Of a stretch of DNA of 64,000 nucleotides, positions 13,214 to 62,843 are shown piece after piece (positions within the stretch are counted from its first letter, which is position 1; every line of letters starts with the position of its first letter). Made by a program: the position numbers and the translations under genes. Under the pieces are notes generated by a model, which was not told the DNA's origin, made no database searches, and saw nothing but the letters and a program-made list of their open reading frames with translations. Source of the DNA: a virus. Its lineage: Duplodnaviria > Caudoviricetes. The stretch spans positions 32,001 to 96,000 of the IMG/VR virus record IMGVR_UViG_3300033074_001909; one strand, 5' to 3'.

Positions 13214-13330
13214 TTAAATGAAGCGAAAACCATGCAAGCGATTGACGGGTTGGCGGTATTGGGTGGAACGGCTGCTAGGCCTGCGGGCGCAGCGGCTAGC
13301 GGAGTTACTGGCGCAGAGGAGGCAGGTGCT

Positions 13331-15405: not shown

Positions 15406-15407
15406 CT

Positions 15408-17376: not shown

Positions 17377-17922
17377 ATGCCACTGCCCGATTTCAAGTTC
17401 ACGTTCGAGCACGGCACCGCGGTGATCTGGGGTGAATCCGGCGCCAGCGGCGTTACCAAGACGCTGTCCTTCGATGGGCTCGCGGCGGGCTCGGCGCGGA
17501 TGGGCGCGGCGGCGGACCTGGGGGAGGACTGGGACCAGTGGTATTACGTGCAGCTTGTGATTGAAAGCGGCACCGCGCCCACGGCCGCCGGCACGGTCGA
17601 TTTGTTTTTGCCCTGCTCCTACGACAACAGCACGTGGCCGGCTGGTGTCAGTGGCAGCGATGGAGCCTGGCCGAGCGATGGCAACGAGGACGAATGGGCC
17701 AAGCAACTGGACAGCGCGTACGTCTGCTCACTGAAGGCGACCAATGACGCTACCACGGTCCAGCGTCAGGCGCCAGTGTTGTGGCGTCCGAGTGGTCGTT
17801 ATGTCGTGCCGGTCGTCGACAACAACATGGATCAGGCGGTGCGCGACGAGACGACAGCGACCGATAACGACAGCCGGGTGATTCTAGTGCCGGTCCGCTC
17901 ATTGGTGCAGCAGGCAGCATGA
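17377..17922 (+). CDS. putative virion structural protein
   Basis: beta-rich, Ala/Thr/Asp-rich; precedes the LamG gene. Confidence 0.65.
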   Translation: MPLPDFKFTFEHGTAVIWGESGASGVTKTLSFDGLAAGSARMGAAADLGEDWDQWYYVQLVIESGTAPTAAGTVDLFLPCSYDNSTWPAGVSGSDGAWPSDGNEDEWAKQLDSAYVCSLKATNDATTVQRQAPVLWRPSGRYVVPVVDNNMDQAVRDETTATDNDSRVILVPVRSLVQQAA

Positions 17923-27109: not shown

Positions 27110-27121
27110 ACGGGTCCTTCC

Positions 27122-27249
27122 TCATGAGGACCATCAGGAGTGCCAGCGCCCGCAACGACGAGGAGATTCGCCAACTCAAACTATTTTCCTGCTCTGTAGC
27201 AGGGTGCAACCTGCGGCGGGAAATTGAAGAACGCAACGGCAAAGCATAA
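27122..27249 (+). pseudogene. remnant diverged copy of the 3' end of gene 25134..25529
   Basis: HEDHQECQR..RNDEEIRQLKLFSCSVAGCNLRREIE versus HEDHQDCQR...RNDEEIKQLKLFSCSVAGCQLRKEIE. Confidence 0.8.
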
Positions 27250-32891: not shown

Positions 32892-32905
32892 TTGGCTCCG
32901 CATTC

Positions 32906-32940
32906 GTTGAATGCCCGCGCAGTGGCTTCGTTGCTGCGAG
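32906..32940 (-). repeat. inverted solitary copy of the CRISPR repeat (anti-repeat)
   Basis: Reverse complement CTCGCAGCAACGAAGCCACTGCGCGGGCATTCAAC. Confidence 0.8.
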
Positions 32941-32960
32941 TACAGGTCGACCCACGCCTT

Positions 32961-33140
32961 TGGGCAAGAGCCAAGCCTCTGCGCGGGCACTTCGACCGGT
33001 TGGGACGAGTTCTGCGCAGCCCAAATCCGGAACGCTCGCAGAAACAAAGCCCCTGCGCGGGCACTTCGACTTGTCGACAACCTGGATCCGGTCGAGCACC
33101 GGCTCTCGCAGGAACAAAGCCCCTACGCGGGCATCATCGC
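32961..33140 (+). CRISPR. CRISPR mini-array: three 36-nt repeats, two spacers (38 and 34 nt)
   Basis: Central repeat CTCGCAGAAACAAAGCCCCTGCGCGGGCACTTCGAC (33035-33070); repeat 1 (32961-32996) has a degenerate 5' half, repeat 3 (33105-33140) a degenerate 3' end. Confidence 0.8.
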
Positions 33141-35905: not shown

Positions 35906-35936
35906 AGGCCCGGGAGTCACTCCTTGGGCCTTTTTT
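35906..35936 (+). terminator. leader terminator upstream of the portal gene
   Basis: AGGCCCGGGAG-TCA-CTCCTTGGGCCTTTTTT. Confidence 0.65.
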
Positions 35937-35946
35937 GTTGGGAAAG

Positions 35947-38900
35947 ATGAGCATGACCACCACGCAACCAGGCGGGCAGCGGATCGGCGGACAGACCTAC
36001 ATGCCCGGGCAGATGCTGCCCGAACGCTATCGCCGCGTGCTGGAGCCGTCCGACCGGCCCCGCGATCCCGCCGTCCGTGATCCGGATCTGGCTCCCAACT
36101 TAGGCCGCCATACCGTCCCGCACATCATCACCTTCCAGGGGCTGGTCACCTCCCTAGCCCGGGCCTATCGCAATCCAGACGAGGCCTTCCGACACAGCGT
36201 CGAAAACGCCCACATGATGCTGACGGACCCGACAGTGAGCGGGCCCTTGCACGCGCGGCAGATGATGACGGCGCTGCTCCAGTGGTCGGTGGAAAGCGAG
36301 GACGACAAAGATTCACAGCTCAAAGAAGCGGCCAGCCAACTCCAGAAAGTCCTGGAACGGACGCCGCGGTTCGCTGAACTGCGCCGGTGGCTGCTGGAAG
36401 CTATCTGGTATGGTCGCGCGGCCAGCCAGCACGCGATCGGATTCCACCGCGATCGCTTCGGCGTGCGACGCAGGGTGATCAAGAAATGGCTGCCGATCTC
36501 TGGCGACAAGCTTCTCTTCCGCTACGACGACGGGAGCGGGGAGTTCGACCCGGATCAGATTGGCGTGCGGGTCAGCCCGGGACTCGGCCGCGAGGATATC
36601 ATCGCCGGGCGGCGCAAACTCGAGGCCACAACCGACGGCATGGGCTACTTCCTGGAGCCCTGGGAGCGTCGGCACTGGGCGGTCCACAAGCACATGATCC
36701 GCGACGGGGAATTCGAGGATCCACTCAGCGCAGGGCAGGTGCATGGCGTCGGCCTGCGGCACTTTCTCTATTGGGTCTGGTATCAGAAGCAGGAGGCTAT
36801 GGCGCAGCTCGCCGAGGTGCTCGACCGTACTGGCGCGGGGATCACCATCTACTATTACCCCGTCGGGAATCAGGAAGCGAAAACCCAGGTGGAAAAGGTG
36901 GCCCGCGAGCAGGCGCACACCAACGTGCTGGTGATGCCGTTCGACCCGGCCAGCACAGGCGGCGACCCGTATTCGATTCAACAAATCCCGCCCAACGTAG
37001 CCGGCCTGCAGGCCCTCCAGGACATCGTGGACGGTTATTTCGGCGACATGATCACGCGGGCCATTCTGGGTCAGACGCTGTCCAGCAAACCCTCCGCAGC
37101 GGGCATGAATACGGGCGTCTCGGATCTTCAGAAAGACTCCCTGTTCCATATCGTGCGATACGACGCGGTCAATCTCCAGGAAACCATCACGCGGGAGATC
37201 CTGTTGCCGCTGCGGGACTTCAACCTACCGAAGTTCCGCAACGTGGATTTCTTCTTCAAAATCTCGACCAAAGTCAGCGCGCCGCAGGAAGAACTGGCCG
37301 CCATTTATCAGGCCTGGCAGATGGGCACCAAAATCCGCGTCCAGGATCTCTTCCAGAAGCTCGACATGGCCATGCCGGACAAAGACGACAAGGTCGTGTT
37401 TAACCCGCAGATTGTGTCAGCCATTCAGCAGGTCGAGAGCGCCCCGATGGGTGGTCTCGCCCCGCCCGGTGGCGCCGGGCCTCAGCCTCCCGGCGCCACC
37501 CCATTTCCACCCGGTGCTGCGGAAGGCACCCCTACAAGTGAGGGCGGGGGCCAAAATGAACCCCCGCCCATAGATAGAGGGGGTGCCAGCGGCCAACCGG
37601 AGCAACTGGATAAGGCCGAAAGCCCCGAGCAGGAACGCCGGAAGTTGTTTGGCCCGATCCTGTACGGTAAGCGCGAGGAGTATCTGGAGCGGATCAGGGA
37701 AGCGGTCGAGAACACCGAGCCCAACCCCACCGAGGCCCAGCGCGAGGCCGGCAATTATCGCAAGGGCGTGGTGCATTGGCGGGGTTTAGAAGTGGTGATC
37801 GAGACGCCCAAGGGTCAGCGGCGGCGCCCGGAATGGCCAGCTCTGCGGGCGCATTACGGCTACATCCGCCGGCATTACCACACGGGCGAGCAACGGCTAG
37901 TCACCAGCGAGCCGTGCGCCGACGGCGACCATCTGGATATCTTCTTGGGGCCACAGCCCGAAAGCGACATCGTGTTCGTGATCGACCAAGTGACGGCCGA
38001 CGGAAAGTTCGACGAGCACAAGTGTATCCTGGGCACGACCAACAAGCGGGACGCCCGGGCGCTGTACCTGTCGAACTATGCGGACGGGTGGAAGTGCGGT
38101 CCGATCCGGGGCATGACGATCGAGACGTTCAAGCACTGGCTCGAGCACGGAGACCTGACGAAGCCGGTGGCGCGCCAGAAACTCAGGTACGCGCGGCAAT
38201 TGTCGCTGTTTGACGATACGTTCTCGCTGGTGCGCAAGCCGAGATCACTCTTTGACGAAGGATCGCATCCCCGGGCAAAAGAGCATGTGGAGATCCAGGG
38301 CAAGGAATACGAAGGCGGGCAATGGATCCCGAAAGACGCGGCGGTGGAAGCCACGCCAGCGGCCCAAGAGAAAATCGAGGTAGTGGACAAGTCCACGGGC
38401 GAAACCGAACCACTTGAGCAAACGCTGAAACCTGGGGATAATGCCACCGCATCGCCACCGAGTCCCGAGGACGACTCCCATGACCAACCACGATCCGACG
38501 CAGAATTCGCACCTGGAGAGCCAGATTCCACCGGAGGAGATGGAGATCGAGGACGACCTGACGACGGAGAATCTGGCGGCGCAGGCGATTTGGGAGCAAA
38601 TCCAGTTGGACCGTCAGAAGAACGGATCGTCACCTCACGCCAACAGCACACGCGCCCAGCGGATCGATCCCTCGTTCCAGAGCGACTTCGACAACATCTA
38701 GACGACCACCAGCAGGAAGGCGTCGCCAAGGCGATTGCCTCTCTTCGGGATGTTGGTGGCTTCCTTAACTCCGACGGGACTGGCGTCGGTAAGGCGCAGC
38801 CGCTCGACGAACCGATTTTGACTCCCACCGGATGGAAGCGGATGGGCGATCTGCAAATCGGCGATGAAGTCATTTCAGCCGACGGATTTCCCACCAAAAT

Positions 38901-41900
38901 CAGTGGCGTCTATCCGCAAGGGCACCTGGAAGTCTATCGCGTCACATTCAGCGATGGATCGTGGACCGAATGCTGTGCAGAGCATTTATGGCAAACCCAC
39001 ACATGGTCTGATCGCCGGAATTTATCTCGCGGTTTGCGTCGCCAGGGCAATGTCCGCTCTCTACGTGAAATTGCGAGTAGTTTGGTAGCTAACGGAGGTC
39101 AATCCAACCATTCAATTCCCATGACAGCCCCCGTCGCATTTCAGCCGCGACAAATCTTGCTTGACCCGTATGTTTTGGGCGTGCTGTTGGGTGACGGAGG
39201 AATGTCCCGACAAGCATCGTTGACAGTAACCAGCGTTGACCAGGAAATTCTAGATAGCGTAGGGCATACCTTGCCTACTGGAGTGCGATTGCGACGCATT
39301 GGAAATAGTCCTAGCTACTCGATCACCACGGATCGTCGCGCAACGAAGTCAGGCAATCCAATGGTGACGGAATTACGCCGTTTGGGACTTCATGGACCAG
39401 GAAAAACATCGGATACAAAATTCATCCCGGAAGACTACAAATTCAATTCCGTTGACGTTCGATTGTCCGTCTTGCAGGGACTAATGGATACAGACGGGAC
39501 AATTGATAAGCGTGGCACAAGTTGCGTTTACACGACAACTTCACGGAAATTGGCTGATGACATTGTGTTTCTTGTGCAGTCGTTGGGGGGAACCGCAAGA
39601 ATCCAAAGCAAGCAACCAACGTATTGTTACAACGGTGATAAACGAGACGGCAAGCAAGCGTACAACGTCACCTTGTGTCTTCCTCCTGAATTCAAGCCAT
39701 TCCGGTTGTCAAGGAAGTCAGGACGAGTAGTTCCTAAGTCTAAGTACGCACCTAGGCGATACATCAAGACGGTGGAGCAAATCGGCAGTAAACCTTGTCA
39801 GTGCATTGCAGTTGAAAATAAGTCGCATTTGTATCTGACACGCGGATTCATTGTCACGCACAATACCCGGCAGCTTCTCGCCACCGCGCAGCACTATCTA
39901 GATCAGGGTAAGAAGGTCATTGTCATCGCGCCTAAGGGCGTGACCAAAGCCGACTGGAAGAAAAAGACCGTCACCGGTTCCTGGCAGAATGACAGCCAGG
40001 CCATGGGTGTGCCGATCCACGTGACGCGGGACGAGATCGACCCCAAGGCGGTCAATATCTCGAGCTACGAGAATCTCGCGAAGCTCAAACGGCAGGTCGA
40101 CGACAACACGATCGTGATGTTCGACGAGGCGCACTCGCTGAAGAATCGCGATTCCGCCCGCTCCAAGCACGGCGTGGAAATGGCCAATACCGCGGCGGCG
40201 GTACTCTTTGCCACGGCCACTCCCGTCGACAAGGTCGAGCACCTGCACTACCTGGACCGAGCCGGTGCCTTTGGCGGGCGATATTACGGCCAGACCTACG
40301 AGCAATTGGGACTGGAGCAAGTCGAGCAGAGCATTGGCGGCGGCCAGACGGTCAAGAAGTGGCAGATTCGTCCTGGCGTCAAGGCATCCGAGGTCATGCG
40401 TCGCCTGTCGGGGCTATTCACGCGATTGACGGCCGATGGCCGGATGGTCAAGCGTGAAATCAGCATGAAGGACGTGCCGGTATCGGTACGGCAGGTGAAA
40501 CTGCCTCCCGAGGCCCACGAAGTCCTGGATCGCATTGAGGAGGAACTGACTGGCACCTCGGCCAATGAGGGCCTGGAACGAGCTCGCATCCTGATGCACC
40601 AGCGGCGACAGCAGGAACCGTATAAAGTCGCCCCCGCAGTCGACGAAGCGCTGCAGGCGCTCGACGCGGGCCGGCAGGTGGTGATTTTCGCGTCACGGGT
40701 CAATGAATCGCAGGTTGGCGGAGAGGATGACGACGACGAAAACGCCATCAAGTCCGAAGGAACCATGAAACTCCTGCGGGAAGAGCTCGAGCGGCGTGGC
40801 ATCAAGCCGGCCGACATCGCGGAGATTCACGGCGGGGTCTCCAAGACGAAGATTCCGAAAGAAATGGACCGCTTCCAAGCTGGTCAGGCTCGCGTCGTGA
40901 TCGCCACGGTGGAGAGTGGCGGCACGGGCATTAACCTGGACGACACGCGAGGAGACCGGCCGCGGACGCTGATCATGATGACGGCGCCATTTTCGGCGGT
41001 GGAAAACGTCCAGGCGGCTGGCCGAGTGTGGCGGCTCAAGACGAAGAGCATTCCCGAGATCAAGTATCTGTTCGGGGATACGGAAGTAGACGATTGGAAT
41101 TCGGCGCTGATCAGCAAGAAGATGCGGACGCTGGGCGCGTCGGTAAGCGGCCAGATTGGCAAACTCGACGTGAACAATCTGAACGAGTCGGACGCGATCG
41201 ATTTCGAGTCCGAAGAGCCGTACGAGTGGCAATATCCCGGGGAGGGTGAACCGCCCTCGGCGTCGTTCACTAAACTGGATAGCGGCGAGTGGGGAATGCG
41301 AGTGGATGGCCGGGTGCGACCGGGCGAAACGGTCGAGATCGCGAAGCGGGACGGATCGAAAACGCGGCGGGTAGTCGGGAAGATCGTCAAGGCGGGCGCC
41401 GGATTCACGATCGCGACGTTGAGCGATGCGGCGCCAGCCCGCGAGCAATTGCCGCCGCCTCCACCACCGCCGCCGTCGCCGCCTCCCCCCAAAGCGCCCA
41501 CGGCGAAGCCCAGTCATCCGTTCGAGGCACTGGCGGCGTGGTCGCAGCCGAAAAAGGTGAACACGGCGCAAGGGCCACGGATGGTGCGCAGCGCGCGCCC
41601 GACGGACAAATTCTGGAAAGAGTGGGGCAAGGACAAGGAGCGATTGAAGCGTCAGGGGATCAGCGTCTCGAAGTACCAAGGAGAATGGCAGATTTCCTGG
41701 TGGCAGGAGGCACCTGATCGCAACGCGAAACGCTACGCCAAGGACATCCTGCCCGGCGGACTCGCCGACGACGCGCCACCGGTGGATGCCGCAGCCTTAG
41801 CCCGCGGCATCGCCATCGAGATGGAGCACACAGACGATCCGGCGATCGCCAAGGAAATCGCGGCCGACCATCTGGCGGAATTCCCGGACTACTACGACGC

Positions 41901-42390
41901 CTTGGAACAAATGGAAGCGTCGCTCCGGTCGCGTGCGTCGAAACTGGGAGATCGCCTGCGCTACGCCAAGGACTTAGCAGACCTGTCGGCCGAACCGCTC
42001 ACCTACGCCTGCGCCTGCCGGCAGCGGTACGCGAAGGGTGACGAGTCGAGTCACGATCACGAACTGGGGCATGTAAGCGACCTGGAATTCGGGCAGGTGA
42101 GCGAGACGCCGGCATGGCGTGAGGCGTGGCAGCAAGAACTCGCCAGCGGCGAACTGAACGAGGAATCCAGCGAGAATCCAGCCGAGGGGCTGGCCGAGTA
42201 TGTGGCGCTGGTGCTGCAGTCCCCGAAGCAGGCTCGCGACGAGTACCCGGTTTGCTGGGAATCGCTCGAGATGGCCGGCATGATCGAAGACGTGGCAAGC
42301 GACGGTCCAGCCCGTTATGCTTACGACGAAAGCCAGCACCCTCGTGACGATGATGGCATGGTTCAAGAATACTCCAAATTAACAGGTTGA
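35947..42390 (+). CDS. portal (DUF935/Mu gp29-like) fused to polyvalent cargo: PPase-like domain, SF2/strawberry-notch-like helicase (with intein), DUF5661-like domain
   Basis: LLEAIWYG, GVGL..LYW, ITRAILGQTLS (portal); NYRKG..IETPKG..HYGYI..DGDHLDIFLGP..FDEHK; DGTGVGK/T, FDEAH, GGTGINL, QAAGRVWR; GIAIEMEHTDDP..AKEIAADHL.E.PDYY. Confidence 0.85.
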   Translation: MSMTTTQPGGQRIGGQTYMPGQMLPERYRRVLEPSDRPRDPAVRDPDLAPNLGRHTVPHIITFQGLVTSLARAYRNPDEAFRHSVENAHMMLTDPTVSGPLHARQMMTALLQWSVESEDDKDSQLKEAASQLQKVLERTPRFAELRRWLLEAIWYGRAASQHAIGFHRDRFGVRRRVIKKWLPISGDKLLFRYDDGSGEFDPDQIGVRVSPGLGREDIIAGRRKLEATTDGMGYFLEPWERRHWAVHKHMIRDGEFEDPLSAGQVHGVGLRHFLYWVWYQKQEAMAQLAEVLDRTGAGITIYYYPVGNQEAKTQVEKVAREQAHTNVLVMPFDPASTGGDPYSIQQIPPNVAGLQALQDIVDGYFGDMITRAILGQTLSSKPSAAGMNTGVSDLQKDSLFHIVRYDAVNLQETITREILLPLRDFNLPKFRNVDFFFKISTKVSAPQEELAAIYQAWQMGTKIRVQDLFQKLDMAMPDKDDKVVFNPQIVSAIQQVESAPMGGLAPPGGAGPQPPGATPFPPGAAEGTPTSEGGGQNEPPPIDRGGASGQPEQLDKAESPEQERRKLFGPILYGKREEYLERIREAVENTEPNPTEAQREAGNYRKGVVHWRGLEVVIETPKGQRRRPEWPALRAHYGYIRRHYHTGEQRLVTSEPCADGDHLDIFLGPQPESDIVFVIDQVTADGKFDEHKCILGTTNKRDARALYLSNYADGWKCGPIRGMTIETFKHWLEHGDLTKPVARQKLRYARQLSLFDDTFSLVRKPRSLFDEGSHPRAKEHVEIQGKEYEGGQWIPKDAAVEATPAAQEKIEVVDKSTGETEPLEQTLKPGDNATASPPSPEDDSHDQPRSDAEFAPGEPDSTGGDGDRGRPDDGESGGAGDLGANPVGPSEERIVTSRQQHTRPADRSLVPERLRQHLDDHQQEGVAKAIASLRDVGGFLNSDGTGVGKAQPLDEPILTPTGWKRMGDLQIGDEVISADGFPTKISGVYPQGHLEVYRVTFSDGSWTECCAEHLWQTHTWSDRRNLSRGLRRQGNVRSLREIASSLVANGGQSNHSIPMTAPVAFQPRQILLDPYVLGVLLGDGGMSRQASLTVTSVDQEILDSVGHTLPTGVRLRRIGNSPSYSITTDRRATKSGNPMVTELRRLGLHGPGKTSDTKFIPEDYKFNSVDVRLSVLQGLMDTDGTIDKRGTSCVYTTTSRKLADDIVFLVQSLGGTARIQSKQPTYCYNGDKRDGKQAYNVTLCLPPEFKPFRLSRKSGRVVPKSKYAPRRYIKTVEQIGSKPCQCIAVENKSHLYLTRGFIVTHNTRQLLATAQHYLDQGKKVIVIAPKGVTKADWKKKTVTGSWQNDSQAMGVPIHVTRDEIDPKAVNISSYENLAKLKRQVDDNTIVMFDEAHSLKNRDSARSKHGVEMANTAAAVLFATATPVDKVEHLHYLDRAGAFGGRYYGQTYEQLGLEQVEQSIGGGQTVKKWQIRPGVKASEVMRRLSGLFTRLTADGRMVKREISMKDVPVSVRQVKLPPEAHEVLDRIEEELTGTSANEGLERARILMHQRRQQEPYKVAPAVDEALQALDAGRQVVIFASRVNESQVGGEDDDDENAIKSEGTMKLLREELERRGIKPADIAEIHGGVSKTKIPKEMDRFQAGQARVVIATVESGGTGINLDDTRGDRPRTLIMMTAPFSAVENVQAAGRVWRLKTKSIPEIKYLFGDTEVDDWNSALISKKMRTLGASVSGQIGKLDVNNLNESDAIDFESEEPYEWQYPGEGEPPSASFTKLDSGEWGMRVDGRVRPGETVEIAKRDGSKTRRVVGKIVKAGAGFTIATLSDAAPAREQLPPPPPPPPSPPPPKAPTAKPSHPFEALAAWSQPKKVNTAQGPRMVRSARPTDKFWKEWGKDKERLKRQGISVSKYQGEWQISWWQEAPDRNAKRYAKDILPGGLADDAPPVDAAALARGIAIEMEHTDDPAIAKEIAADHLAEFPDYYDALEQMEASLRSRASKLGDRLRYAKDLADLSAEPLTYACACRQRYAKGDESSHDHELGHVSDLEFGQVSETPAWREAWQQELASGELNEESSENPAEGLAEYVALVLQSPKQARDEYPVCWESLEMAGMIEDVASDGPARYAYDESQHPRDDDGMVQEYSKLTG
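38794..39864 (+). mobile_element. class 3 (Ala-1, WCT) LAGLIDADG intein in the helicase Walker A
   Basis: GK|AQPLDEPILTPTGW; HLW, CQCI, VTHN|T; LGVLLGDG and LQGLMDTDG; lower GC. Confidence 0.92.
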
Positions 42391-54300: not shown

Positions 54301-56376
54301 TTCGCGCGGCAGCAACTTGCCGCCTCTCAGTCGGCCGCCGAGCAGTTAGCGCAGCAGAAGGCCGAGGCCGGTGGCGCCTTGGCGCCCGAAGTCGACCCGG
54401 ACACGGGAAAATCGATCAGCCGTCGCGCCTACCTGGCCAAGCAGCGCGCGGCCGGCCGGGCCGTCCAGCAGGGGAAGGGGGTCAGTCCCCGCACGCCGCT
54501 GGGGCGCGCCATCATTGCGGCGGTGGGCGATGACCCGGTCGAACAGCAGCATTTCGGTGAAGTCCTGAAAGAGATCCACGCCAACGACATCGACGCCGTG
54601 CGGAACCGGAACGACGCCATCAAGGAAACGCTGGCGAATTTTGGGTTCATGGGCCGGGATGCCGGAAAATTCCTGCAGGCGATCCGCAAGTACGAAGATG
54701 CGGACCAGTTCCTGCGCAAGAGTCCGCTGGGTAACAAATTCGACCAGATGACAGAGTACGCCCTGACGCACTTTGGCGAAGTATTGGACGTGGCGCACAC
54801 TCGCACTCACGACGACCCGGAAAGCGCGTTCTTCGAGACGCTTCAGCGAGGCCTGAAACGCGTGCCCGAGCCGCACGATGACGAGGTGGTGTCGAAAGCC
54901 CTGGAGTATTACCTGTCCAGTCTGGAGTCATCGCGCGCCCACGAAGAGCGATTGAAAACCGATCCCGCGTACCGAGAAGAAATGGCCGCGATTGAGCGAG
55001 GCGATTACACATTCTCGCGGCAGGGCGCTAAGATCCGGTACGCCCGCTGGGCGCGGCAGAGACTCAGCCGGTGGTATCGGTATGCCCGTCAGTTGTCGCT
55101 GTTTGATGATCCGGGCGGACTGCAGTCCGCAACCAAGCCGAAGCCGAAAGGCAAGCAGAAAGGCCTGTTCGACGAAGACGACCACCCACGGGCCACGGAA
55201 CACGTCGAGATCAAGGGGAAATCCTACGAGGGCGGTCAGTGGATTCCCAAGGACGAAGCGGCGCAGGCCAGCCCCGCAGCGGCGGAGAAAATTGAAGTCG
55301 TCGACCAGGACACGGGTCAAGCCCAGCCGCTGGACGAAGTGGAAGAACAGCCGTCGGAATCGCCCGGCGCAGAGCCGGCCTCGGCAGATCCAGAACCTTT
55401 CGAGTTCAAGACAGCCGCCCAAGCGGCGCAGGAGGGAATGTCTTTCGCATCATGGCAGCAGCCGATTACAGACGCCTATCGTCATGAGCGGATCGACGAG
55501 GATCATCCAGCCTGGCAAGCAGTCTTAAACGCCCCCAATGTGTCGGACTACAACGACGCCAGGCACGTGTTTGGCAAGCATGTCCTCGCGCATGCCGGCC
55601 AGCAGGAGGTCTTTGGCACGGTCACGGCGCTATCCGACGACCTGCAATCCGGCACGATCACGATGCCCGACGGCAGAGAGGCCAAGCACTTCATTTCCAA
55701 CATGAACGACCTGGGGCCGTTCCTGCAGGATCGCTTGAAGCGGTACATTGCTACGAAGGGGCTCGACGAAACGCGCGAGGCGCTGGCCCGTAGCGAAGCA
55801 GCCAAGTATTTGGCGGGTGTGATGGCCCAAGAGGCATTCCAGAAGCAGACCAACATCGGCGAGGTGATCAAGGCGCACGGGTTCGGCCTGAAGGAAGGTA
55901 TGGCGATCCGGAGCATGGTCGCGGATGAGTTCATGAAGTTGCAAGAGGCAGCCAAGCCCCAAGCGAGCGACGCGCGCAAGCGAGCTCAAGAGAAGCGGCG
56001 GCAAACCGACGAAGCGGCGGAGAAGAAGCCAGACGACACCGCGACATCCGCCGGCAACTACGAGGGCATCCTGCAGGAATCCGCCCCCTACGAAGAGTAC
56101 GGCGACAACTACAATCGGAACATCGCAGCCTCAGCTAATCGGCTGCGCGACGCGATGGAGCGAGGGCACGATGCCAAGATGCTGGATCACTTGGCATCCG
56201 AACTGCGCACCCGGATCGACGTGCATGGGAAGAAGCCACAAGGTGGCGGTGAGGCCGAACGAGGCGACAAGCCAGACGCAGCAGGAGCAGCAGCCGAAGT
56301 CCAGGATCCAGAGCAGCCAGCCGCCGAGGCCGTCGCCAGCGATCAAGAATCCAAGATGGTGATCATCGACAAGTAG
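51307..56376 (+). CDS. large polyvalent protein (MutS-I-like, GNAT and ParB-like domains, HPR motifs)
   Basis: GGAGG SD; FEEDKHPRDEDGQF; LVRHGGKFHAFDESA..LIENGHRVAV; SRGQGVMRQL..WGPLGF; PPPISV..NRRRVLAA. Confidence 0.8.
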   Translation: MATGFADRYAAEFEEDKHPRDEDGQFTLKVSKIHGPKGEKFENLGGKQQDLFAFRGEKGQMNLFSDAGVPDELLPKHIRKGKPDTYAKDEDPPDSGPQWMTLGGGARALVAEDGTILQGCEGVKGYDLDELDETRDERAAKQEQAEDAGWTSAKSDRARETWEAFKNSDPTHPHFIGLVRHGGKFHAFDESAGKLQEQLGIGDGQTAEFDEDKLPHHMERLIENGHRVAVIDRAEDGTPDLDSDADPEAQQAVAEAHEDVAEQQETKPAAAGFGIEPVHPERLKLTQDGREIGYMNLRVMGDRGYIDDTSIHAASRGQGVMRQLWPQIEQHFRDQGATSIRADVVDPAVGEKVWGPLGFQKEGMSGPVEVYRKHLDSPAADSEQATDKPPSTKRGRLPSTDDPAHHAVAQRFGIPPETVKEILETHPDELSRRDNYFPPNSQRDEVVGPTLDYEPHPLGSAKIDSSQHKAGETDNAYVDFLTEFDPQQLKLSEPEDGMSKSQSVAAYADWIKAGMEPPPISVFDSANGNGNLVSTNRRRVLAAQQAGADKIVGWHGKNNPETGLPLKLGDIKRAYEEAKGQGAAASESDQQEQTPADTAGEADDWNAATQSPAEATDDQLARAIEFASHLHGHHQRNAQSGQITPEQLTSLHDMIDGHVATMQAELERRKHAQDQPADRGNAAASPGGTDDASATGAETRPTSGTAAADPGPTGSLGTRHHDAGQRIAQAPGPVRSLLESLHRLRDTRKTGQVETKELGHEYAREMYDHLKSLRHAGDDFGEVHDLSQELGHGAIGYASPAGNVAMVPPKFKGQDWQVRYTLPHESQQAPAATPADAPSEPAGQGDELELLDDVMEGDAYEGDLPASDAGGGFPWEDAGQDEPPTAPSQQPAYSDAWRDLHAQHQDLVYRTIPHREQQYRQAVSQAQRDQQRFAAKAAEYQSQADQLESVTPRDPAHAVRMKSDRPYAEARRRIDKLRKMSADLDRKADEAKLHPRIEFARQQLAASQSAAEQLAQQKAEAGGALAPEVDPDTGKSISRRAYLAKQRAAGRAVQQGKGVSPRTPLGRAIIAAVGDDPVEQQHFGEVLKEIHANDIDAVRNRNDAIKETLANFGFMGRDAGKFLQAIRKYEDADQFLRKSPLGNKFDQMTEYALTHFGEVLDVAHTRTHDDPESAFFETLQRGLKRVPEPHDDEVVSKALEYYLSSLESSRAHEERLKTDPAYREEMAAIERGDYTFSRQGAKIRYARWARQRLSRWYRYARQLSLFDDPGGLQSATKPKPKGKQKGLFDEDDHPRATEHVEIKGKSYEGGQWIPKDEAAQASPAAAEKIEVVDQDTGQAQPLDEVEEQPSESPGAEPASADPEPFEFKTAAQAAQEGMSFASWQQPITDAYRHERIDEDHPAWQAVLNAPNVSDYNDARHVFGKHVLAHAGQQEVFGTVTALSDDLQSGTITMPDGREAKHFISNMNDLGPFLQDRLKRYIATKGLDETREALARSEAAKYLAGVMAQEAFQKQTNIGEVIKAHGFGLKEGMAIRSMVADEFMKLQEAAKPQASDARKRAQEKRRQTDEAAEKKPDDTATSAGNYEGILQESAPYEEYGDNYNRNIAASANRLRDAMERGHDAKMLDHLASELRTRIDVHGKKPQGGGEAERGDKPDAAGAAAEVQDPEQPAAEAVASDQESKMVIIDK

Positions 56377-56451
56377 TAGACGGTTTATCCGGGATGTGCG
56401 ACACTTTCCACGCCCGCCAGTATCGCGGCCAGCCCTTGAACGGAATCATTC

Positions 56452-56853
56452 ATGCCACGTGCCAGCGCTCCCAGTCTTGCCCAGGCCCAGGTGGTGACCG
56501 CCGATCTGGTGACCACCTTGCGTGACTTGCTCCCCGTGTTGCTCCAGAGCCCCCGCGCCTGGGCCATCCGCTATCAGGTGAGAATCCGTAACGGCACCGT
56601 GGACCGCCGCAATTCCAAAATCTGGGACGATTCCCTGGATGATGTACCTTTTCGCGACGGCGAAGACGTGGACGTGGCCATGCAGCGCATCGAGGGCATG
56701 TTTCTCAAATTCCTGCCGCGGTATCTGGGCAATGGCACCAACGGGGAAGCAGAGATCCTTGTGACGATCAAGGACAAGCGGGTAGCGTTTGCCACGGCCC
56801 TGGAGCGGCAACGGCTGTTCACGTGGAAGGCGGACGGCACGAGTGCCACGTAG
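56452..56853 (+). CDS. hypothetical protein immediately upstream of csf1
   Basis: ORF ending 8 nt before csf1. Confidence 0.6.
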   Translation: MPRASAPSLAQAQVVTADLVTTLRDLLPVLLQSPRAWAIRYQVRIRNGTVDRRNSKIWDDSLDDVPFRDGEDVDVAMQRIEGMFLKFLPRYLGNGTNGEAEILVTIKDKRVAFATALERQRLFTWKADGTSAT

Positions 56854-56861
56854 GACGTTAA

Positions 56862-57611
56862 ATGACCGCCCCGCAATTATTTGCCAGCTACTGGCCCGAG
56901 GGACCGCATCGCTGCTACTACTGCGGCGGGCGATGCGACGAGACGCATCGAGCTGCTGATCTGGTCCAGTCGTCGTTTACCGCACGTGATACCGTGGCTG
57001 GCGGTGAGTACGTGTGCCCTGGCTGCATCGCTGCGATGGACGAGAGGGCCACGATTACGCTGGCCGACGGCGAAGTGCGCGAAGGCCAGCGGGTCCGCTG
57101 CTACTCCTGGGTCATCACTGCCGAAGCGGCGATCGCTGCCACCAAAGCTCATCGCGCGTGGCTGACAGGAGCGTGCCTGTCGCCTCCAGAACCGCCCTAC
57201 GTCATCTCGATCAGCGACAGCGGGCAACGGCACCTGCTGTATCGTGCCGTCGTATGCCATTCTCGCGAGATCATTACCGCCACTCTGGAGGGCGAGCGGG
57301 TAACATTCACACCCTATGAGCTTGACGAGCGGTTGACGCTGTGTCGCAAACTGATCGCGGCAACCGGCAAGCCGGCTCTGTCCGAAGCACCGACTGCACG
57401 ATTCGGCATGTCGGTAGTCTCGCATCACGACGACGAATCACTGATCTCCACGTGGCTGGAATGTCGCGAGCAACCGCTGTCTCGCCTGGCGGCGTGGCTC
57501 TCGCCTCCCAAGGAGGAATGCTTACTTGAGTTCCCAGCACCAGCAGCTCCCGCCCCCACTGCCTGTGCTCGACACCGAGCAGTTCAGGCAACGTTTAGCT
57601 GGCTTGATTGA
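56862..57611 (+). CDS. csf1: type IV CRISPR Csf1 (Cas8-like)
   Basis: CYYCG, VCPGC Zn finger; PPEPPYVISISDSGQRHLLYRAVV. Confidence 0.8.
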   Translation: MTAPQLFASYWPEGPHRCYYCGGRCDETHRAADLVQSSFTARDTVAGGEYVCPGCIAAMDERATITLADGEVREGQRVRCYSWVITAEAAIAATKAHRAWLTGACLSPPEPPYVISISDSGQRHLLYRAVVCHSREIITATLEGERVTFTPYELDERLTLCRKLIAATGKPALSEAPTARFGMSVVSHHDDESLISTWLECREQPLSRLAAWLSPPKEECLLEFPAPAAPAPTACARHRAVQATFSWLD

Positions 57612-57999
57612 CCAGCGATCCGAAGTGGACGCCGAAGATTTCGCCAGCGTGGCGGCGTGCGCTATCCATTTTGTCTCGTCGCTGCCGATTGTGTTCGGCG
57701 AGCAGCTCGAGCGCACCACACTGTGGGATAAGATCGGCGCCGCCCTGGATACCGCTTACGCCAAGACCGCCGCCGATGATTGCGACTTCTTTATCAGTCG
57801 CGTGCTGGAGTCGATCCTGGCTTCTCCGGCGGCCGTCGCTCGCTGTGAGGCCATCGGCCAGGTGATAACGTGGCTCTCCGCTGCGCCGACTGAGATGCGG
57901 CACGCGTGGCTGCAGTACATCGCCACGCACCGCTATGCCGTGCTCGTACGCGCTCGCATGGCCTGGGAGCAGCAGAAGGAGGCTCGCGCCAATGCCTGA
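57526..57999 (+). CDS. type IV-B small subunit (Cas11-like), alpha-helical
   Basis: position between csf1 and csf2; helical composition. Confidence 0.65.
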   Translation: MSSQHQQLPPPLPVLDTEQFRQRLAGLIDQRSEVDAEDFASVAACAIHFVSSLPIVFGEQLERTTLWDKIGAALDTAYAKTAADDCDFFISRVLESILASPAAVARCEAIGQVITWLSAAPTEMRHAWLQYIATHRYAVLVRARMAWEQQKEARANA

Positions 58000-58876
58000 G
58001 ACCTATACGATCCTCTGCGTGAGTGAAGCCGCCTCGCCAATCACGCACATGAGCGGCAGCGCCGGCAATGAGGCGATTATCGCTCGTGCGCCCGTGATGA
58101 CGGATCGCGGGAAACTGTGGATACCATACCTCTCAGGTAATGCCCTGCGCCACCGTTGCGTGCGAGATCCAGGCGTGGATTTCCTTTTGGATCTTTACGA
58201 ACTGCGAGGCAAACTTACACTGCCGCAGCTCAATTTCCTGCGGCACGGCGGAAATCTCACGGAGTCCACCGCACACGAGAACACGGCCCGCATCGCCGAG
58301 ATGAAACGCACTTGGCCGCTACTGCGATTGCTGGGTGGCTCGTTGCCAAACCAGATCCTGGCCGGCAGCCTGCAAGTCTGGCGTGGTGAACTGGTGTGCG
58401 AGGAAAACCGCCAATACCTGGCCACGCTCGGAGACTGGCTGCCCACGCGGCGACTCAAGGCTGCCGAGGAGTTCATCGGGAACTACCAGTACACGCGCGG
58501 CGATGCCGCGAAGTCCGGCGAGGCTCAGGCGGAGGAGGATCGCGAGAGCAATCTGATGATCTTCGCTGGCCAGCAGGTCAATCGTGGCTCGCTGTTTGTG
58601 CATGGCTTCGTGGCGCCTCACGCGTCGCGCGTCGAACTGGGCGCGCTGCTGCTGTCGCTCCGACTCTGGCAGTCCCGCGGCGGGACGATCGGCGGACAAG
58701 CGGCGCGCGGCCACGGCCGGCTGGCGATGTCCCTGGTCGGTGCGATCGACCAGTCGTGTGTGGACGAGTACGTCGAGTACGCGATCAGCGTGCGAGATGC
58801 GGCGATCGCGTGGCTTGAGGACTGCTTTGCGAAGCGAGCCGACAAGCCAGCGAAGACAAAGAAGGTGAAGGCATGA
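57992..58876 (+). CDS. csf2: type IV Csf2 (Cas7-family RAMP)
   Basis: SPITH, IPYLSGNALRH, L.HGG.L, PLLRLLGG, G-loop IGGQAARGHG. Confidence 0.88.
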   Translation: MPETYTILCVSEAASPITHMSGSAGNEAIIARAPVMTDRGKLWIPYLSGNALRHRCVRDPGVDFLLDLYELRGKLTLPQLNFLRHGGNLTESTAHENTARIAEMKRTWPLLRLLGGSLPNQILAGSLQVWRGELVCEENRQYLATLGDWLPTRRLKAAEEFIGNYQYTRGDAAKSGEAQAEEDRESNLMIFAGQQVNRGSLFVHGFVAPHASRVELGALLLSLRLWQSRGGTIGGQAARGHGRLAMSLVGAIDQSCVDEYVEYAISVRDAAIAWLEDCFAKRADKPAKTKKVKA

Positions 58877-59538
58877 GCCTGCTCGTGATCGCGCACCTAT
58901 CGTCGCCGCTGGCCGGTGATGCGCCGATGCTGGACGGACTGCTCGAGTTCGAGATGTCGCAGAGACTCGGTGCGGCGTATAAGGTCCGCCGCGATCAGCC
59001 TGCACCGCCCGCCGGAGCGATCCATATTCCGATGCTGCGGCGCGGTATCGGCGGTTGGAGTGTTCCGCTCTGCTCGTCACCGATCTACACCGCCGAGAGT
59101 GATCGGCATGAGTACATCGGCAAGCGGCTGGCGGTCGAGCACGCCAGTGATTTACGCGAGGATGCACGGCTGGTCGTGGCGATGGGCAACGCGACCTACA
59201 AGTCATATCGCCTACCGCTGCGAGTGAGGAATGTGTCACGCGTGGCGTGGTTCTGCGAGGGGCATCGATCGCCGATTTTGAAGCTGCTCAAATCGGTACA
59301 CGCGATCGGCCGGAAGCGGTCAGATGGATACGGTCGCGTGGCGCGATGGACTGGCGAGAACGTGGATGGCAATCATCACTGGTACGGCGAGAGCGAGCAC
59401 GGCCCGGTGCTCATGCGACCGCTGCCGTTTGGCGACTGGCTGCCGCGCAGCCTGCTCGGCGCGAAGCGAGATTTCGGTGCGGTCGTCGCGCCGTACTGGC
59501 ATCCTGATCGCTATGCGGAGATTGTGGTGCCATGCTGA
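58873..59538 (+). CDS. csf3: type IV Csf3 (Cas5-family RAMP)
   Basis: LSSPL..LDGLL, YKSYRLPL, IGRKRSDGYGRV, MRPLP, PYWH. Confidence 0.85.
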   Translation: MSLLVIAHLSSPLAGDAPMLDGLLEFEMSQRLGAAYKVRRDQPAPPAGAIHIPMLRRGIGGWSVPLCSSPIYTAESDRHEYIGKRLAVEHASDLREDARLVVAMGNATYKSYRLPLRVRNVSRVAWFCEGHRSPILKLLKSVHAIGRKRSDGYGRVARWTGENVDGNHHWYGESEHGPVLMRPLPFGDWLPRSLLGAKRDFGAVVAPYWHPDRYAEIVVPC

Positions 59539-60263
59539 TTCGCACTGCTCGCCACACGGCCGCAGACCTGGCATTGTGGGAGTCGCTCGAGGACGCCGAC
59601 ATTCTGAGGCAGGACGTGGCCGCCTATCGCGCACGGTACGCTGAGGCGCTGCACGCGATCGCCGCGTTTACATCCGCAGGCGAGTGCTACGCCGGCATCA
59701 GTTGGGGGAAGGACTCTACCGTGCTGGCTCATCTGATCCAGTGCGTCGCGCCTGACACGCCACTAGCCTGGACGCGAGTAGAACCGATCGCCAATCCAGA
59801 CTGTGTGCTCGTGCGAGATGCGTTCCTGCGATTGCATCCGCACGCGAACTATCACGAGATCACGGAGTGGTGTGAGTGGCGCGATGGAGAGTGGCACGCC
59901 ACTGGCACGCTCGAAAGCGGCATCGCCAAGTGCCGAGAACGATGGGGAGAGCGGACGATACTCGGTATTCGAGCCGAGGAGAGCACCCAGCGTGGGTTCC
60001 GCATTTGGCGCCACGGACTATCGACGGATCGGTCGTGTGATCCACTGGGACGCTGGCGCATCGAGGACGTGATGACCTGCCTGGCAATCGAGGGACTGCC
60101 GGTGCATCCGGCTTACGCCATGCTGGGAGGCGGGCGCTGGCCGCGAGAGCAACTGCGGGTCTCGTCGCTCGGCGGTCGTCGCGGCGATGGCCTCGGGCGA
60201 GCAGAGTGGGAGCGCGAGTATTACGGCGATGTGGTGCGACGGCTGGCCATGACGGACACCTGA
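59532..60263 (+). CDS. CysH/PAPS-reductase-family protein associated with type IV-B
   Basis: PP-loop SWGKDS, LGIRAEES, PLGRW..DV. Confidence 0.85.
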   Translation: MLIRTARHTAADLALWESLEDADILRQDVAAYRARYAEALHAIAAFTSAGECYAGISWGKDSTVLAHLIQCVAPDTPLAWTRVEPIANPDCVLVRDAFLRLHPHANYHEITEWCEWRDGEWHATGTLESGIAKCRERWGERTILGIRAEESTQRGFRIWRHGLSTDRSCDPLGRWRIEDVMTCLAIEGLPVHPAYAMLGGGRWPREQLRVSSLGGRRGDGLGRAEWEREYYGDVVRRLAMTDT

Positions 60264-60268
60264 ACGTA

Positions 60269-60493
60269 TTAATTGCGGCGATACTGCGTGGATTCGCGCG
60301 ACGCTTCCACCAGGTCGATCAGGTGATTGACCAGTTCGGTGAGCATCTCATTCCGCCGCAAATCCGCAATCCGCTCCATGCGTTTATCGGCCGGCAAGGC
60401 CAGCAGCCCGTCCAGGCAGGACTGGCAGAGCGGAATCGGCGAGGCCGACGGAGCCAGTTCACACAGACACGATTGGCAGAGGTGACTTAGCAT
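60269..60493 (-). CDS. small Zn-finger protein
   Basis: two CQSC motifs. Confidence 0.55.
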   Translation of the reverse strand: MLSHLCQSCLCELAPSASPIPLCQSCLDGLLALPADKRMERIADLRRNEMLTELVNHLIDLVEASRESTQYRRN

Positions 60494-60513
60494 GGATTTG
60501 CGTCGGCGGTGTC

Positions 60514-60610
60514 TTGACGAAATTTCGCCGTTATTCTAAATAACATACTCGCGACCAGAAATTGCGGTACTTCGAACAGAAGCCCGTCGGGAAACCGGCG
60601 GGCTTTTTTT
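60514..60610 (+). promoter_or_regulatory. promoter-leader-terminator element, copy 2
   Basis: TTGACGAAATTTCGCCGTT...AAGCCCGTCGG-GAAA-CCGGCGGGCTTTTTTT. Confidence 0.75.
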
Positions 60611-60632
60611 GTTTCTTGAGGGAGTATTGGTT

Positions 60633-60908
60633 ATGGCTGACCCGGTAGTTCGAGACGGATTCGAAATCTCCGGCTCCACCGCGCGGCGCAACCAGCAATC
60701 CAACGCTCCCGTCGGATTTGAATATTACGACACGACCGTCCGCAAGCTGTTCGTGATGGGCCCGCGCGGCTGGGAGCACGTCGGAACCGAAGAGGAGCAG
60801 TCCAGTAGTTCCTCCTCGTCGTCGTCCTCGTCGTCGCTGTCCAGCCAATCCAGTAGCTCCCTCAGTTCGCAGAGTTCTTCTTCGAGTAGCTCGAGTTCCC
60901 AAAGCTAA
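60633..60908 (+). CDS. small protein with poly-Ser tail, paralog 1
   Basis: VVRDGFEISGSTARRN..YYDT..VMGP.GWE then EEEQ-poly-Ser. Confidence 0.7.
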   Translation: MADPVVRDGFEISGSTARRNQQSNAPVGFEYYDTTVRKLFVMGPRGWEHVGTEEEQSSSSSSSSSSSSLSSQSSSSLSSQSSSSSSSSSQS

Positions 60909-60922
60909 GGCACGGTTGACCC

Positions 60923-61123
60923 ATGGTAGTTCGAGACGGATTCGAAATCTCCGGCTCCACCGCGCGGCGCAACCTAATGTCCAACGCGCCGGTCGGACAC
61001 CGGTATTACGACACCGACCACCGGCACCTGTACGTGATGGGACCAGCCGGTTGGGAACGCGTCGCCGAGGAAGAGCAGTCGAGTTCCAGCAGTTCCAGTT
61101 CGTCCAGCAGTTCGTCGAGTTGA
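60923..61123 (+). CDS. small protein with poly-Ser tail, paralog 2
   Basis: tandem duplicate of 60633..60908. Confidence 0.7.
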   Translation: MVVRDGFEISGSTARRNLMSNAPVGHRYYDTDHRHLYVMGPAGWERVAEEEQSSSSSSSSSSSSSS

Positions 61124-61133
61124 TTTTAGCTGC

Positions 61134-62843
61134 ATGAACACCGTCACGCCAATGCGACCGAAGCGCACGCGGGGGAACCCCACCGAGGACGGCGAGTTCG
61201 TGGTCTTCGAGCACGTGCCGATCTTCGATGAGCACGAGGGTGATGACGGCGTGGTGTACGACGAACGGCTGCTGCGGGCCATTGCCGACAACTGCAACCG
61301 CCGCATCCAGACCACCGGCGACTGGTGCCCGGCCGTGGTAGCGCACACCCGCGACCGCGAGGACAAGGCCACCGTCGATGACGATCCCCAGGTGATCGGG
61401 CTGTGCGGTCCGTTCTACGTGGCGGACTTCACGAATGGCGATGGACGGCAGGTTAAAGCGATTCACTGCCACTTTTGGATCTTCCCCGAGGAAGAGAAGA
61501 CCTTCCTGCGAAACCCGCGCCGCAGCGTGGAAATCTGGCCCGAGGAGCGTCCGGAAGACCGGTATTTCGATCCCATCGCCTTGCTGGGCGCGGAAACGCC
61601 CAAGCGCGACCTGGGCATGATCTACAGCCGCCGGCGACCGGGCCGCGAGCCATCTCGGCGGTGCATGGCGGGGCCGCTGCGATACGCGAAGCGTTCGACG
61701 AAGCCGCTGCGGTACGAGGAAGGCGGCGGGGTCGCCAGCACCCCGGGCGGGAACAATACGTTCATTCCGGGGGCCGTCGAGATCCCCAAGAAGAAGAAAC
61801 CACTTCAGCACGCGAAAGGATCATCGCCCATGGCGCTATCACCGGATGATATCAGCCAAATCGTCGAAGCCCTGCGGCCGACGATTGAATCGATTGTCGA
61901 TGAGCGGATGGGGCCGGCGGACCTGGGCAATGACGCCGATCTTGGCGCAGCCCCCGACTTGGGTGGCGCTCCGGACATGGGTGGCGCGGATCTGGGTGGT
62001 GCCCCGGGCGGCGACATGGACGACGTGCCGAACTACGACGACATGGACGAGGAGTCGAAGCTCTACAGCCGCGGACTGGGCCGCAAATACATGCGGTACA
62101 AGAAGGACGAGGGCTGGGATGAGGACGGCGAGTCGTCGTTCATGGCCACGCTCGACGACGACGACAAGGGGAAACTCGGGTCGTACATGAAGTACATGTG
62201 CGACGACGATGACTCGAAGAAGCGGTATGCCGAGCGGTATGCCAAGAGCCCCATCGGCGGCACGGACCTCACCGAGTCGGGCCCGATGGCCACCGGCGAA
62301 ATGAAAGACGGCGAGCCCACGCGTTACGGGAAGGGGATGCCCATGAATTACCAGAAGTTGCGTCAGGAACGCGACGAAGCCGCGGCCAAGTATTCCAAAC
62401 TGAACCGCGAGCACCAGGAACTGAAGCAGAAGTACGCCAAGCAGGAAGGCGAACTGGCGACCGTCCGCCAGAAGGAACGCTATTCCCGCCGGCTGTCGCA
62501 ACTCAAGGATCTCGAGCCGGAGTACGCGTTCGACGCCGAAGAGGAAATGTCCCTCACCGAGGATTTTTCCGACGACCAGTTCACGCGGCACCTGGATGTG
62601 ATCAAGACGCGGTACGCCAAGGTTAGCGGCCAGACGATGCCCACCGAGCGGGAGCGGCCCTTACCATCGCCCGCCCAGGAAAAGCAGCAGCGGTACGCCA
62701 AGCAGGCCACGGATCTGGTGCAGCGCTACCGCAAGGCAGGCCGCAGCATTGATTACGGCAAGCTGCTGGATCACCTGATCGAGAATCACGGCCAGGTGAA
62801 CGAAGACAAACTGTTCCAGTCCAACGGCCACGCGGCCGCCTGA
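61134..62843 (+). CDS. prohead protease-scaffold fusion (Mu I-like)
   Basis: VPIFDEH, IADNCN, VVAHT, PRRSVEI, IALLGAETP; acidic linker and coiled coil; upstream of the capsid genes. Confidence 0.78.
   Translation: MNTVTPMRPKRTRGNPTEDGEFVVFEHVPIFDEHEGDDGVVYDERLLRAIADNCNRRIQTTGDWCPAVVAHTRDREDKATVDDDPQVIGLCGPFYVADFTNGDGRQVKAIHCHFWIFPEEEKTFLRNPRRSVEIWPEERPEDRYFDPIALLGAETPKRDLGMIYSRRRPGREPSRRCMAGPLRYAKRSTKPLRYEEGGGVASTPGGNNTFIPGAVEIPKKKKPLQHAKGSSPMALSPDDISQIVEALRPTIESIVDERMGPADLGNDADLGAAPDLGGAPDMGGADLGGAPGGDMDDVPNYDDMDEESKLYSRGLGRKYMRYKKDEGWDEDGESSFMATLDDDDKGKLGSYMKYMCDDDDSKKRYAERYAKSPIGGTDLTESGPMATGEMKDGEPTRYGKGMPMNYQKLRQERDEAAAKYSKLNREHQELKQKYAKQEGELATVRQKERYSRRLSQLKDLEPEYAFDAEEEMSLTEDFSDDQFTRHLDVIKTRYAKVSGQTMPTERERPLPSPAQEKQQRYAKQATDLVQRYRKAGRSIDYGKLLDHLIENHGQVNEDKLFQSNGHAAA

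Follow-up and report, generated by a model that had tools for sequence, protein, structure and literature searches.

Background

Type IV-B is the subtype of CRISPR-Cas systems whose function is least understood, and the locus described here leaves that unchanged. Good descriptions exist of plasmid and prophage loci of this subtype that include cysH (PMC7038947); IV-B has also been reported in lytic phages and in an archaeal virus (PMC10848311). The RNA in the solved complex from Mycobacterium is heterogeneous, of non-CRISPR origin and about 55-60 nt long, and co-expressed CRISPR RNAs (crRNAs) are not enriched in the complex (PMC7937560). Here we analyse a IV-B locus in a stretch of 64,000 nucleotides, called the window in the following, which corresponds to bases 32001-96000 of a 106,332-bp IMG/VR virus contig (IMGVR_UViG_3300033074_001909) of a tailed phage; all coordinates refer to the window unless they are marked as contig coordinates. 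The genes csf1, cas11, csf2, csf3 and a cysH-like gene form a discrete insert in this phage, flanked by two backbone genes in convergent orientation. The best explanation for the whole, to which we give a probability of about 0.6, is a mobile, dispensable, array-less IV-B accessory cassette, with the preceding open reading frame (ORF) of 133 codons, ORF133, as a mere neighbour.

With the IV-B system on the megaplasmid of Mycobacterium sp. JS623 (PDB 7JHY; PMC7937560) the window locus shares csf1, cas11, csf2, csf3 and a neighbour of the cysH family; like that system it has no array, Cas6, helicase or adaptation genes, and the Csf2 proteins are detectably homologous. It differs in its carrier, which is a tailed phage and not a plasmid, in the distance of its Csf2 (E = 2.4e-4 by plain phmmer against the JS623 protein) and in an extra Csf1 tail that overlaps cas11. 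The 'Fuxiviridae' of Bathyarchaeia (PMC10848311) resemble our phage in having a viral IV-B module with a CysH-like neighbour and no adaptation module. However, the Fuxivirus has a mini-array inside the locus, whereas here the nearest repeats lie 10-23 kb off and belong to a Cas12m family, and the presumed host is bacterial (Planctomycetota-like).

A conjugative plasmid of Actinomyces (PMC12669027, Extended Data Fig. 7) also combines IV-B and a type V effector with an array on one element. There the partner is an adjacent Cas12b3, whereas here it is Cas12m-like, 11.5 kb away and on a phage; moreover, the pairing of Cas12m with IV-B is not conserved among the relatives of this cassette. Type IV-A, which carries out DinG-dependent interference between plasmids, has a homologous backbone of Csf1, Csf2 and Csf3 and likewise no nuclease. 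On the other hand, IV-A has DinG, Csf5/Cas6 and an array and is without Cas11 and CysH, and no IV-A-specific part was detected in our locus. The locus is thus an ordinary member of subtype IV-B, and phage-borne IV-B is already in print. What is new here is the large clade to which it belongs, a junction that lacks the cassette, the exclusion of ORF133, the co-resident Cas12m array and the Csf1 tail.

Identity of the cassette genes

A preliminary description of this DNA had listed six plus-strand ORFs, all of which are present exactly where it placed them, and had proposed that five of them constitute a complete, overlapping IV-B operon in the order csf1-cas11-csf2-csf3-cysH. Profile and structure searches bear this out: PADLOC profiles identify Csf1, Cas11, Csf2 and Csf3, phrog_2302 matches the cysH-like product, and a PDB profile and Foldseek place the latter as well (Table 1). 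As far as sequence can tell, all five identities are established and the locus has every defining feature of subtype IV-B that can be looked for in this manner.

From csf1 to the cysH-like gene the cassette measures 3.4 kb. Successive genes overlap by 86, 11, 4 and 7 nt, the last value being the overlap between csf3 and the cysH-like gene. The TTG start of cas11 (57526) has a Shine-Dalgarno sequence, AAGGAGG, 9 nt upstream. The csf2 frame is open from 57935, although a start at the ATG at 57989 is more likely, since the alignment of the relatives begins there.

General family collections recognise these proteins poorly. The NCBIfam equivalogs for Csf1, Csf2 and Csf3 (TIGR03114/5/6) give weak matches under their cut-off (TIGR03114 on Csf1, E = 1.2e-12), and a Pfam search of the four Csf/Cas11 proteins returned nothing. 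We therefore regard the cassette as belonging to a divergent IV-B branch. A blastn search with the operon as query had no match in phage and plasmid collections, and Rfam found no family over 56000-61200.

The absence of cas1, cas2, cas6 and an adjacent array, claimed in the preliminary description, agrees with our searches. In the 106-kb genome there was no match to the Pfam models Cas_Cas1, CRISPR_Cas2, Cas_Cas6_C and Helicase_C_2 (DinG-type), with positive controls matching. PADLOC on the six ORFs found no helicase, no Cas6/Csf5 and no adaptation protein, with no dedicated Csf5 or RecD models used. A hidden Markov model (HMM) of the CRISPR repeat of the phage finds zero copies between 33140 and 70180; the repeats at these two positions are the nearest to the cassette, 23 kb upstream and 10 kb downstream of it, respectively.

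Relatives and mobility of the cassette

In a large protein collection Csf2 has 602 relatives at E <= 1e-5, nearly all of them unnamed metagenomic proteins. The comparison of gene content and order covered 24 related IV-B loci, of which 17 from IMG/VR and five on contigs of metagenome-assembled genomes (MAGs) were retrieved with a Csf2 alignment and two more came from a metagenome scan. The order csf1-cas11-csf2-csf3 followed by cysH recurs across the 17 IMG/VR loci and across MAG contigs of Phycisphaerales and Planctomycetaceae. A conserved cas11 is found in 20 related loci, and a PP-loop (cysH-like) gene is coupled to the module in 19 of the 24. The same cassette has spread among otherwise unrelated phages: the GC content of the carriers ranges from 38 to 65%, and most of them have essentially nothing in common with the window phage beyond the five cassette genes, whose products are also the closest protein pairs.

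Public metagenome contigs were compared with the window; two of the sequencing runs are labelled X3 and X5 here. In run X3, which comes from wastewater, a 7.3-kb contig fuses position 56852 to position 60271 with four other letters between them. This junction omits 3,418 nt, that is, exactly csf1 through cysH, and both neighbouring genes retain their stop codons (TAA in ORF133, TGA in a 74-aa ORF on the minus strand). Because the junction removes exactly csf1-cysH and leaves the flanking genes intact, we regard the cassette as a discrete, variable insert; the genes that bound it belong to the backbone and are convergent.

A second allele of the cassette is present in runs X3 and X5. It has 129-144 differences across 57038-59733, as against 0-4 differences in the flanks and in the ORF133-csf1 part. 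Within a near-clonal phage population the cassette therefore varies both by presence or absence and, through recombination, by allele. The differences between the csf2 alleles fall mostly on third codon positions (26 of the 37 listed), and purifying selection acts on csf2. A further variable spot was seen in a contig of run X5: at its 3' end, the 1706-aa gene upstream of the cassette has 35 other letters in place of 947 nt (55356-56304).

Since part of the phage population does without the cassette, it might be taken for a decaying remnant without function. We find this hardly credible: the five frames are intact and their starts coupled, the zinc-finger cysteines, the PP-loop and many residues of Csf2 and Csf3 are invariant, and the allelic differences lie mainly where they change codons in the third position.

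In some relatives up to 3.5 kb of extra genes separate csf3 from cysH; in part of them the insert encodes a radical SAM enzyme. Three such inserts (L008:11504-14583, L011:11832-15049 and L019:11718-14279) encode a DNA methylase, a 399-aa protein, an IbrA-like PAPS reductase/DUF3440 protein and a 188-aa protein, and each of these three loci has two genes of the PAPS-reductase family. ParB-like genes come after the cassette in four related loci; radical SAM genes are found in L005 and L018. We also considered that the cassette might often lie beside the terminase, as in L005, L007, L011, L012 and L013. This impression is anecdotal, given that a phrog_2 search located the large terminase subunit (TerL) in only two of nine relatives.

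ORF133

ORF133 had been put forward in the preliminary description as a possible new accessory subunit, and several of its properties would suit a sixth, lineage-specific subunit of the IV-B complex or one of its regulators. The ORF is on the csf1 strand and stops 8 nt short of that gene, its composition is coding-like, and it appears to be a real, well-folded protein that matches no known fold. An AlphaFold2 (AF2) model built from the family alignment reaches a predicted local distance difference test (pLDDT) score of 91 and has a duplicated unit of a helix and a beta-hairpin (alpha-beta-beta, twice). No convincing fold was found for it (Foldseek on PDB and BFVD; VIA-align wide), the best match, with Z = 6.6, being a de novo design. 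Searches in Pfam, NCBIfam, PADLOC and PHROGs had no match and a word-indexed protein search returned only the protein itself; an exhaustive HMMER search yielded about 15 relatives of 120-139 aa, which makes this a rare family.

On the other hand, a search of the 24 IV-B loci and 10 kb on either side of them with the HMM of this family matches no copy but that of the window, an IMG/VR scan found no homologue, and the junction without the cassette keeps ORF133 together with its stop codon. Since ORF133 is absent from the related loci and retained in the cassette-less variant, we conclude that it is not a IV-B subunit. The conservation check beside IV-B loci that had been suggested for it thus contradicts the accessory-subunit idea, for which we see next to no chance. 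ORF133 encodes a genuine protein that stands outside the IV-B complex; the gene belongs to the backbone and adjoins the insertion site by chance. A false lead is hereby removed.

Genomic context and expression

The site of the operon had been described as lying between the gene of a polyvalent protein and the protease/capsid genes. Its position between the portal and capsid genes is correct, as follows from the portal fusion and the head protein listed in Table 1. The two other labels fare less well. The term 'polyvalent' is unproven, GNAT being the sole recognisable domain of the 1706-aa protein upstream, and for a protease there are leads only: the N-terminus of the 569-aa protein downstream has language-model and structure (Atlas) leads to the scaffold-proteases Mu-like_Pro, GPO and S78. 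The cassette is a swappable add-on among the head-building genes and not a component of head assembly. Immediately upstream of the scaffold/protease-like gene there are two tandem paralogous small genes (60633-60908 and 60923-61123, about 91 and 66 aa), which have a common N-terminal VVRDGFEISGSTARRN motif and long poly-serine tails.

Table 1. Positions of the cassette genes and of neighbouring features in the window.
Feature	Position	Strand	Evidence or remark
csf1 (Cas8-like large subunit, 249 aa, 4-Cys zinc finger)	56862..57611	+	PADLOC typeIV_Cas8, E 1.7e-60
cas11 (small subunit, 157 aa, TTG start)	57526..57999	+	PADLOC typeIV_Cas11, E 5e-29
Dual-coding overlap: C-terminal tail of Csf1 (end QATFSWLD) and first 28 codons of cas11 in the other frame	57526..57611	+	
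csf2 (Cas7 backbone, 295 aa from ATG)	57989..58876	+	PADLOC typeIV_Cas7, E 3.6e-76
csf3 (Cas5, 221 aa)	58873..59538	+	PADLOC typeIV_Cas5, E 1.7e-31; alignment A6 of the relatives
cysH-like PP-loop enzyme (243 aa)	59532..60263	+	phrog_2302, E 2.1e-23; alignment A4; PDB profile; AF2 and Foldseek
ORF133, 133-aa backbone gene outside the cassette	56452..56853	+	GC at third codon positions (GC3) 0.78; ends 8 nt before csf1
74-aa backbone gene with two CxxC pairs, bounds the cassette on the right	60269..60493	-	Coding-like GC at the three codon positions: 0.63/0.43/0.73
Strong intrinsic terminator (stem of 13 bp with 8 G-C pairs, and a T run)	60578..60607	+	Closes the plus-strand unit that contains the cassette
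Mu-type portal fusion	35935-42390		
Major head protein	starts 63447		phrog_1005, E 2.9e-10

No terminator-like hairpin was found in the 75-nt gap after the 1706-aa gene (56376-56452) or in the 8-nt gap before csf1. As no terminator precedes the operon, the simplest reading of this arrangement is that it would be expressed by read-through from the late plus-strand genes upstream. A candidate promoter with a small RNA at 60514-60612 was rejected; its -10 element is poor and no conservation was found.

Source of the bound RNA

Because the cassette proteins are homologous to those of the solved Mycobacterium IV-B complex (PDB 7JHY, PMC7937560), we infer that they would assemble into a Cascade-like ribonucleoprotein (RNP). 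An RNA of about 55-60 nt would be enclosed by Csf2 and Cas11 in a filament, with Csf3 and Csf1 as caps, and the complex would require no crRNA encoded by the phage.

The phage has CRISPR arrays of its own. A 672-aa gene, the product of which is a structure match to Cas12m (PDB 23vw_A, E = 1.6e-40), precedes the main array of 13 repeats and 12 spacers. The repeat (GTTGAAGTGCCCGCGCAGAGGC...) is 36 nt long and built like a type V repeat, two bases lying between its 3' hairpin and the spacer; degenerate copies of it occur in small clusters at four further sites, including 32905-33140. It is conceivable that the IV-B complex shares these guides, that is, that it loads crRNAs from the 13-repeat array and the mini-arrays after their processing by Cas12m. 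The preliminary description had named a mini-array 24 kb upstream as one possible source. This array is real, but it belongs to the Cas12m repeat family; its use by IV-B is unsupported.

Arrays, the Cas12m gene and IV-B do lie in one 106-kb genome, and there are parallels elsewhere: on the Actinomyces plasmid IV-B lies next to an inactivated Cas12b3 with a mini-array (PMC12669027), in the archaeal virus a mini-array is found inside the IV-B locus (PMC10848311), and one relative of our cassette (G012) has a mini-array in the same genome. The relatives as a whole tell a different story. A Cas12m homologue was found in none of the 17 related IV-B virus records, nine of which are at least 90% complete, and a simple array finder, applied to the full sequences of 12 relatives, reported no CRISPR array for 11. 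Furthermore, the repeat is of type V and no Cas6 was found that could make a class 1 handle, the cassette is gained and lost independently of the backbone, and in the solved IV-B complex the co-expressed crRNAs were not enriched (PMC7937560). For these reasons we consider shared guides decidedly unlikely. If they were true, one guide set would drive two non-cutting effectors, and this would be the first natural crRNA source identified for a IV-B system.

Three further observations concern arrays and repeats. The mini-CRISPR of G012 (L059:1894-2003) consists of two identical 37-nt repeats with a 3' hairpin and a 36-nt spacer, and lies upstream of csf1; G012 has no recognisable Cas12, and a 612-aa ORF in it with a weak match to the Cas12 zinc ribbon proved to be a RadD-like helicase. 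Upstream of the window, at contig 15398-15713 and 17651-17839, there are clusters of degenerate Cas12m-repeat hairpins, separated by gaps of about 10-45 nt. Such gaps are too short for normal spacers, and hairpin or decoy clusters are therefore likelier than arrays. Finally, spacer S4 of the main array agrees in 26 of 27 positions with a piece of DNA of the phage itself (20338-20364), in an intergenic site just upstream of a terminator-like hairpin, and has an 18-nt exact match also at contig 13278-13295. The self-match could reflect self-regulation by the non-cutting Cas12m, or a motif in common with competitor phages.

A different reading takes the heterogeneous RNA of uniform length in the solved IV-B RNP as its starting point. 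The complex would then be an RNA sponge or anti-CRISPR, coating host crRNAs or small guide RNAs non-specifically and blunting RNA-guided defence, a role that has been proposed in print (PMC7937560, PMC7038947). The cassette is indeed variable in the way of counter-defence genes, being present or absent and having mosaic alleles. A sponge, however, leaves unexplained why a PP-loop enzyme is coupled to the module in 19 of the 24 loci, and why Csf1 has a zinc finger and a docking-type tail. Pinilla-Redondo et al. judged a complex anti-CRISPR of this kind unlikely, and so do we.

Csf1 tail and CysH-like enzyme

Four cysteines of Csf1 (C18, C21, C52 and C55) are invariant in 18 relatives, which is consistent with a zinc finger. 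At the other end of the protein, in 12 of 22 loci, Csf1 runs for 25-70 residues past a conserved PxKEEC, in a frame that overlaps the cas11 start. These tails end in LFD, LFG, QLGLF, QLLFDF or similar and resemble sliding-clamp-binding peptides. A regular expression for the tail motif hits 8 loci, as against 0.36 on average and 3 at most when the sequences are shuffled 2000 times; as the expression was written after viewing the data, this control overstates the significance. Judged from the sequences, the recurrence of the motif across very different tails is striking, and the tail may act as a clamp tether. At 57510-57526 the codons of PxKEEC, AAGGAGGAA, double as the Shine-Dalgarno sequence of cas11, and each of the two, protein motif and ribosome-binding site, may limit how far the other can vary.

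In the CysH-like protein the PP-loop SWGKDS is invariant in 19 sequences, and GxRxxES and the C-terminal GGGR...EWExEYY are kept. Its match to Pfam PAPS_reduct is under the gathering cut-off (E = 0.008). A profile of 19 orthologues matches CysD and several PAPS reductases in PDB, and in Foldseek an AF2 model (pLDDT 86.6) finds proteins of the PAPS-reductase fold (the PAPS domain of FAD synthase, CysH and TtuA). PAPS/APS reductases of the CysH type have a conserved C-terminal catalytic cysteine, in a motif of the ECGLH type. Alignment A4 contains no invariant or nearly invariant cysteine, and the CysH-like protein would therefore not have the thiol that true PAPS reductases use in catalysis. 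An enzyme of the ATP pyrophosphatase or adenylyltransferase type is probably a better reading of it than a sulfate reducer. A second gene of the PAPS_reduct family, above the Pfam cut-off and more canonical than the IV-B cysH-like gene, lies upstream of the window (contig 26125-27234). The phage contains neither a TGT/DpdA nor a QueC gene, and a link to 7-deazaguanine does not hold for it. When Csf1, Csf3 and the CysH-like protein were modelled together, with alignments, the score was 0.00, which speaks neither for nor against binding.

Genome, host and habitat

The final repeat and spacer of the contig are the same as its first (contig 1-654 and 105961-106332, one and the same array), so the assembly closes on itself through a single array. 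Probably, then, the genome is circular and fully assembled at about 106.25 kb rather than 75% complete as listed. DNA of this phage was found in wastewater and sludge metagenomes from three studies. Hints at the host come from a DUF1559/N-methyl protein, from a Csf2 relative named after Planctomycetes and from the MAG contigs assigned to Phycisphaerales and Planctomycetaceae. The host is probably a member of the Planctomycetota living in wastewater or sludge.

Proposed role of the cassette

We propose that a horizontally mobile, array-less IV-B cassette has been inserted between two convergent backbone genes of a phage of about 106 kb, where it would serve as a dispensable accessory in conflict between phage and host or between phages. 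The CysH-like enzyme would adenylate or otherwise activate a substrate, most plausibly the nucleic acid carried by the RNP, and the Csf1 tail might tether the complex to the sliding clamp of the host.

Several points weigh against this proposal. The cassette-less junction comes from one contig in one run, with a left side of 30 nt; an overlap of this length (k-1) is what a graph branch would be expected to give, yet it is a single observation. The tail of the window Csf1 (QATFSWLD, with WLD) is a weaker, degenerate form of the LF-type motif of the relatives. Unlike its IV-B relatives, the window phage carries CRISPR arrays, so its own crRNAs are possible guides, and in G012 the mini-array is 5.6 kb from the cassette. 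Finally, RNP formation, read-through transcription, the chemistry of the CysH-like enzyme and docking to the clamp are all things that we infer.

For the study of IV-B systems in general, a compact and complete phage genome with both IV-B and a Cas12m array makes the borrowed-guide hypothesis testable in one construct. Variants that have the cassette and variants that lack it share one backbone; they amount to a natural isogenic comparison and mark the cassette as dispensable and mobile. Both the Csf1 tail and the PP-loop enzyme without a conserved cysteine are found again in unrelated phages, and together they suggest a modification of nucleic acids that is linked to DNA or the replisome, and not a role in sulfur metabolism.

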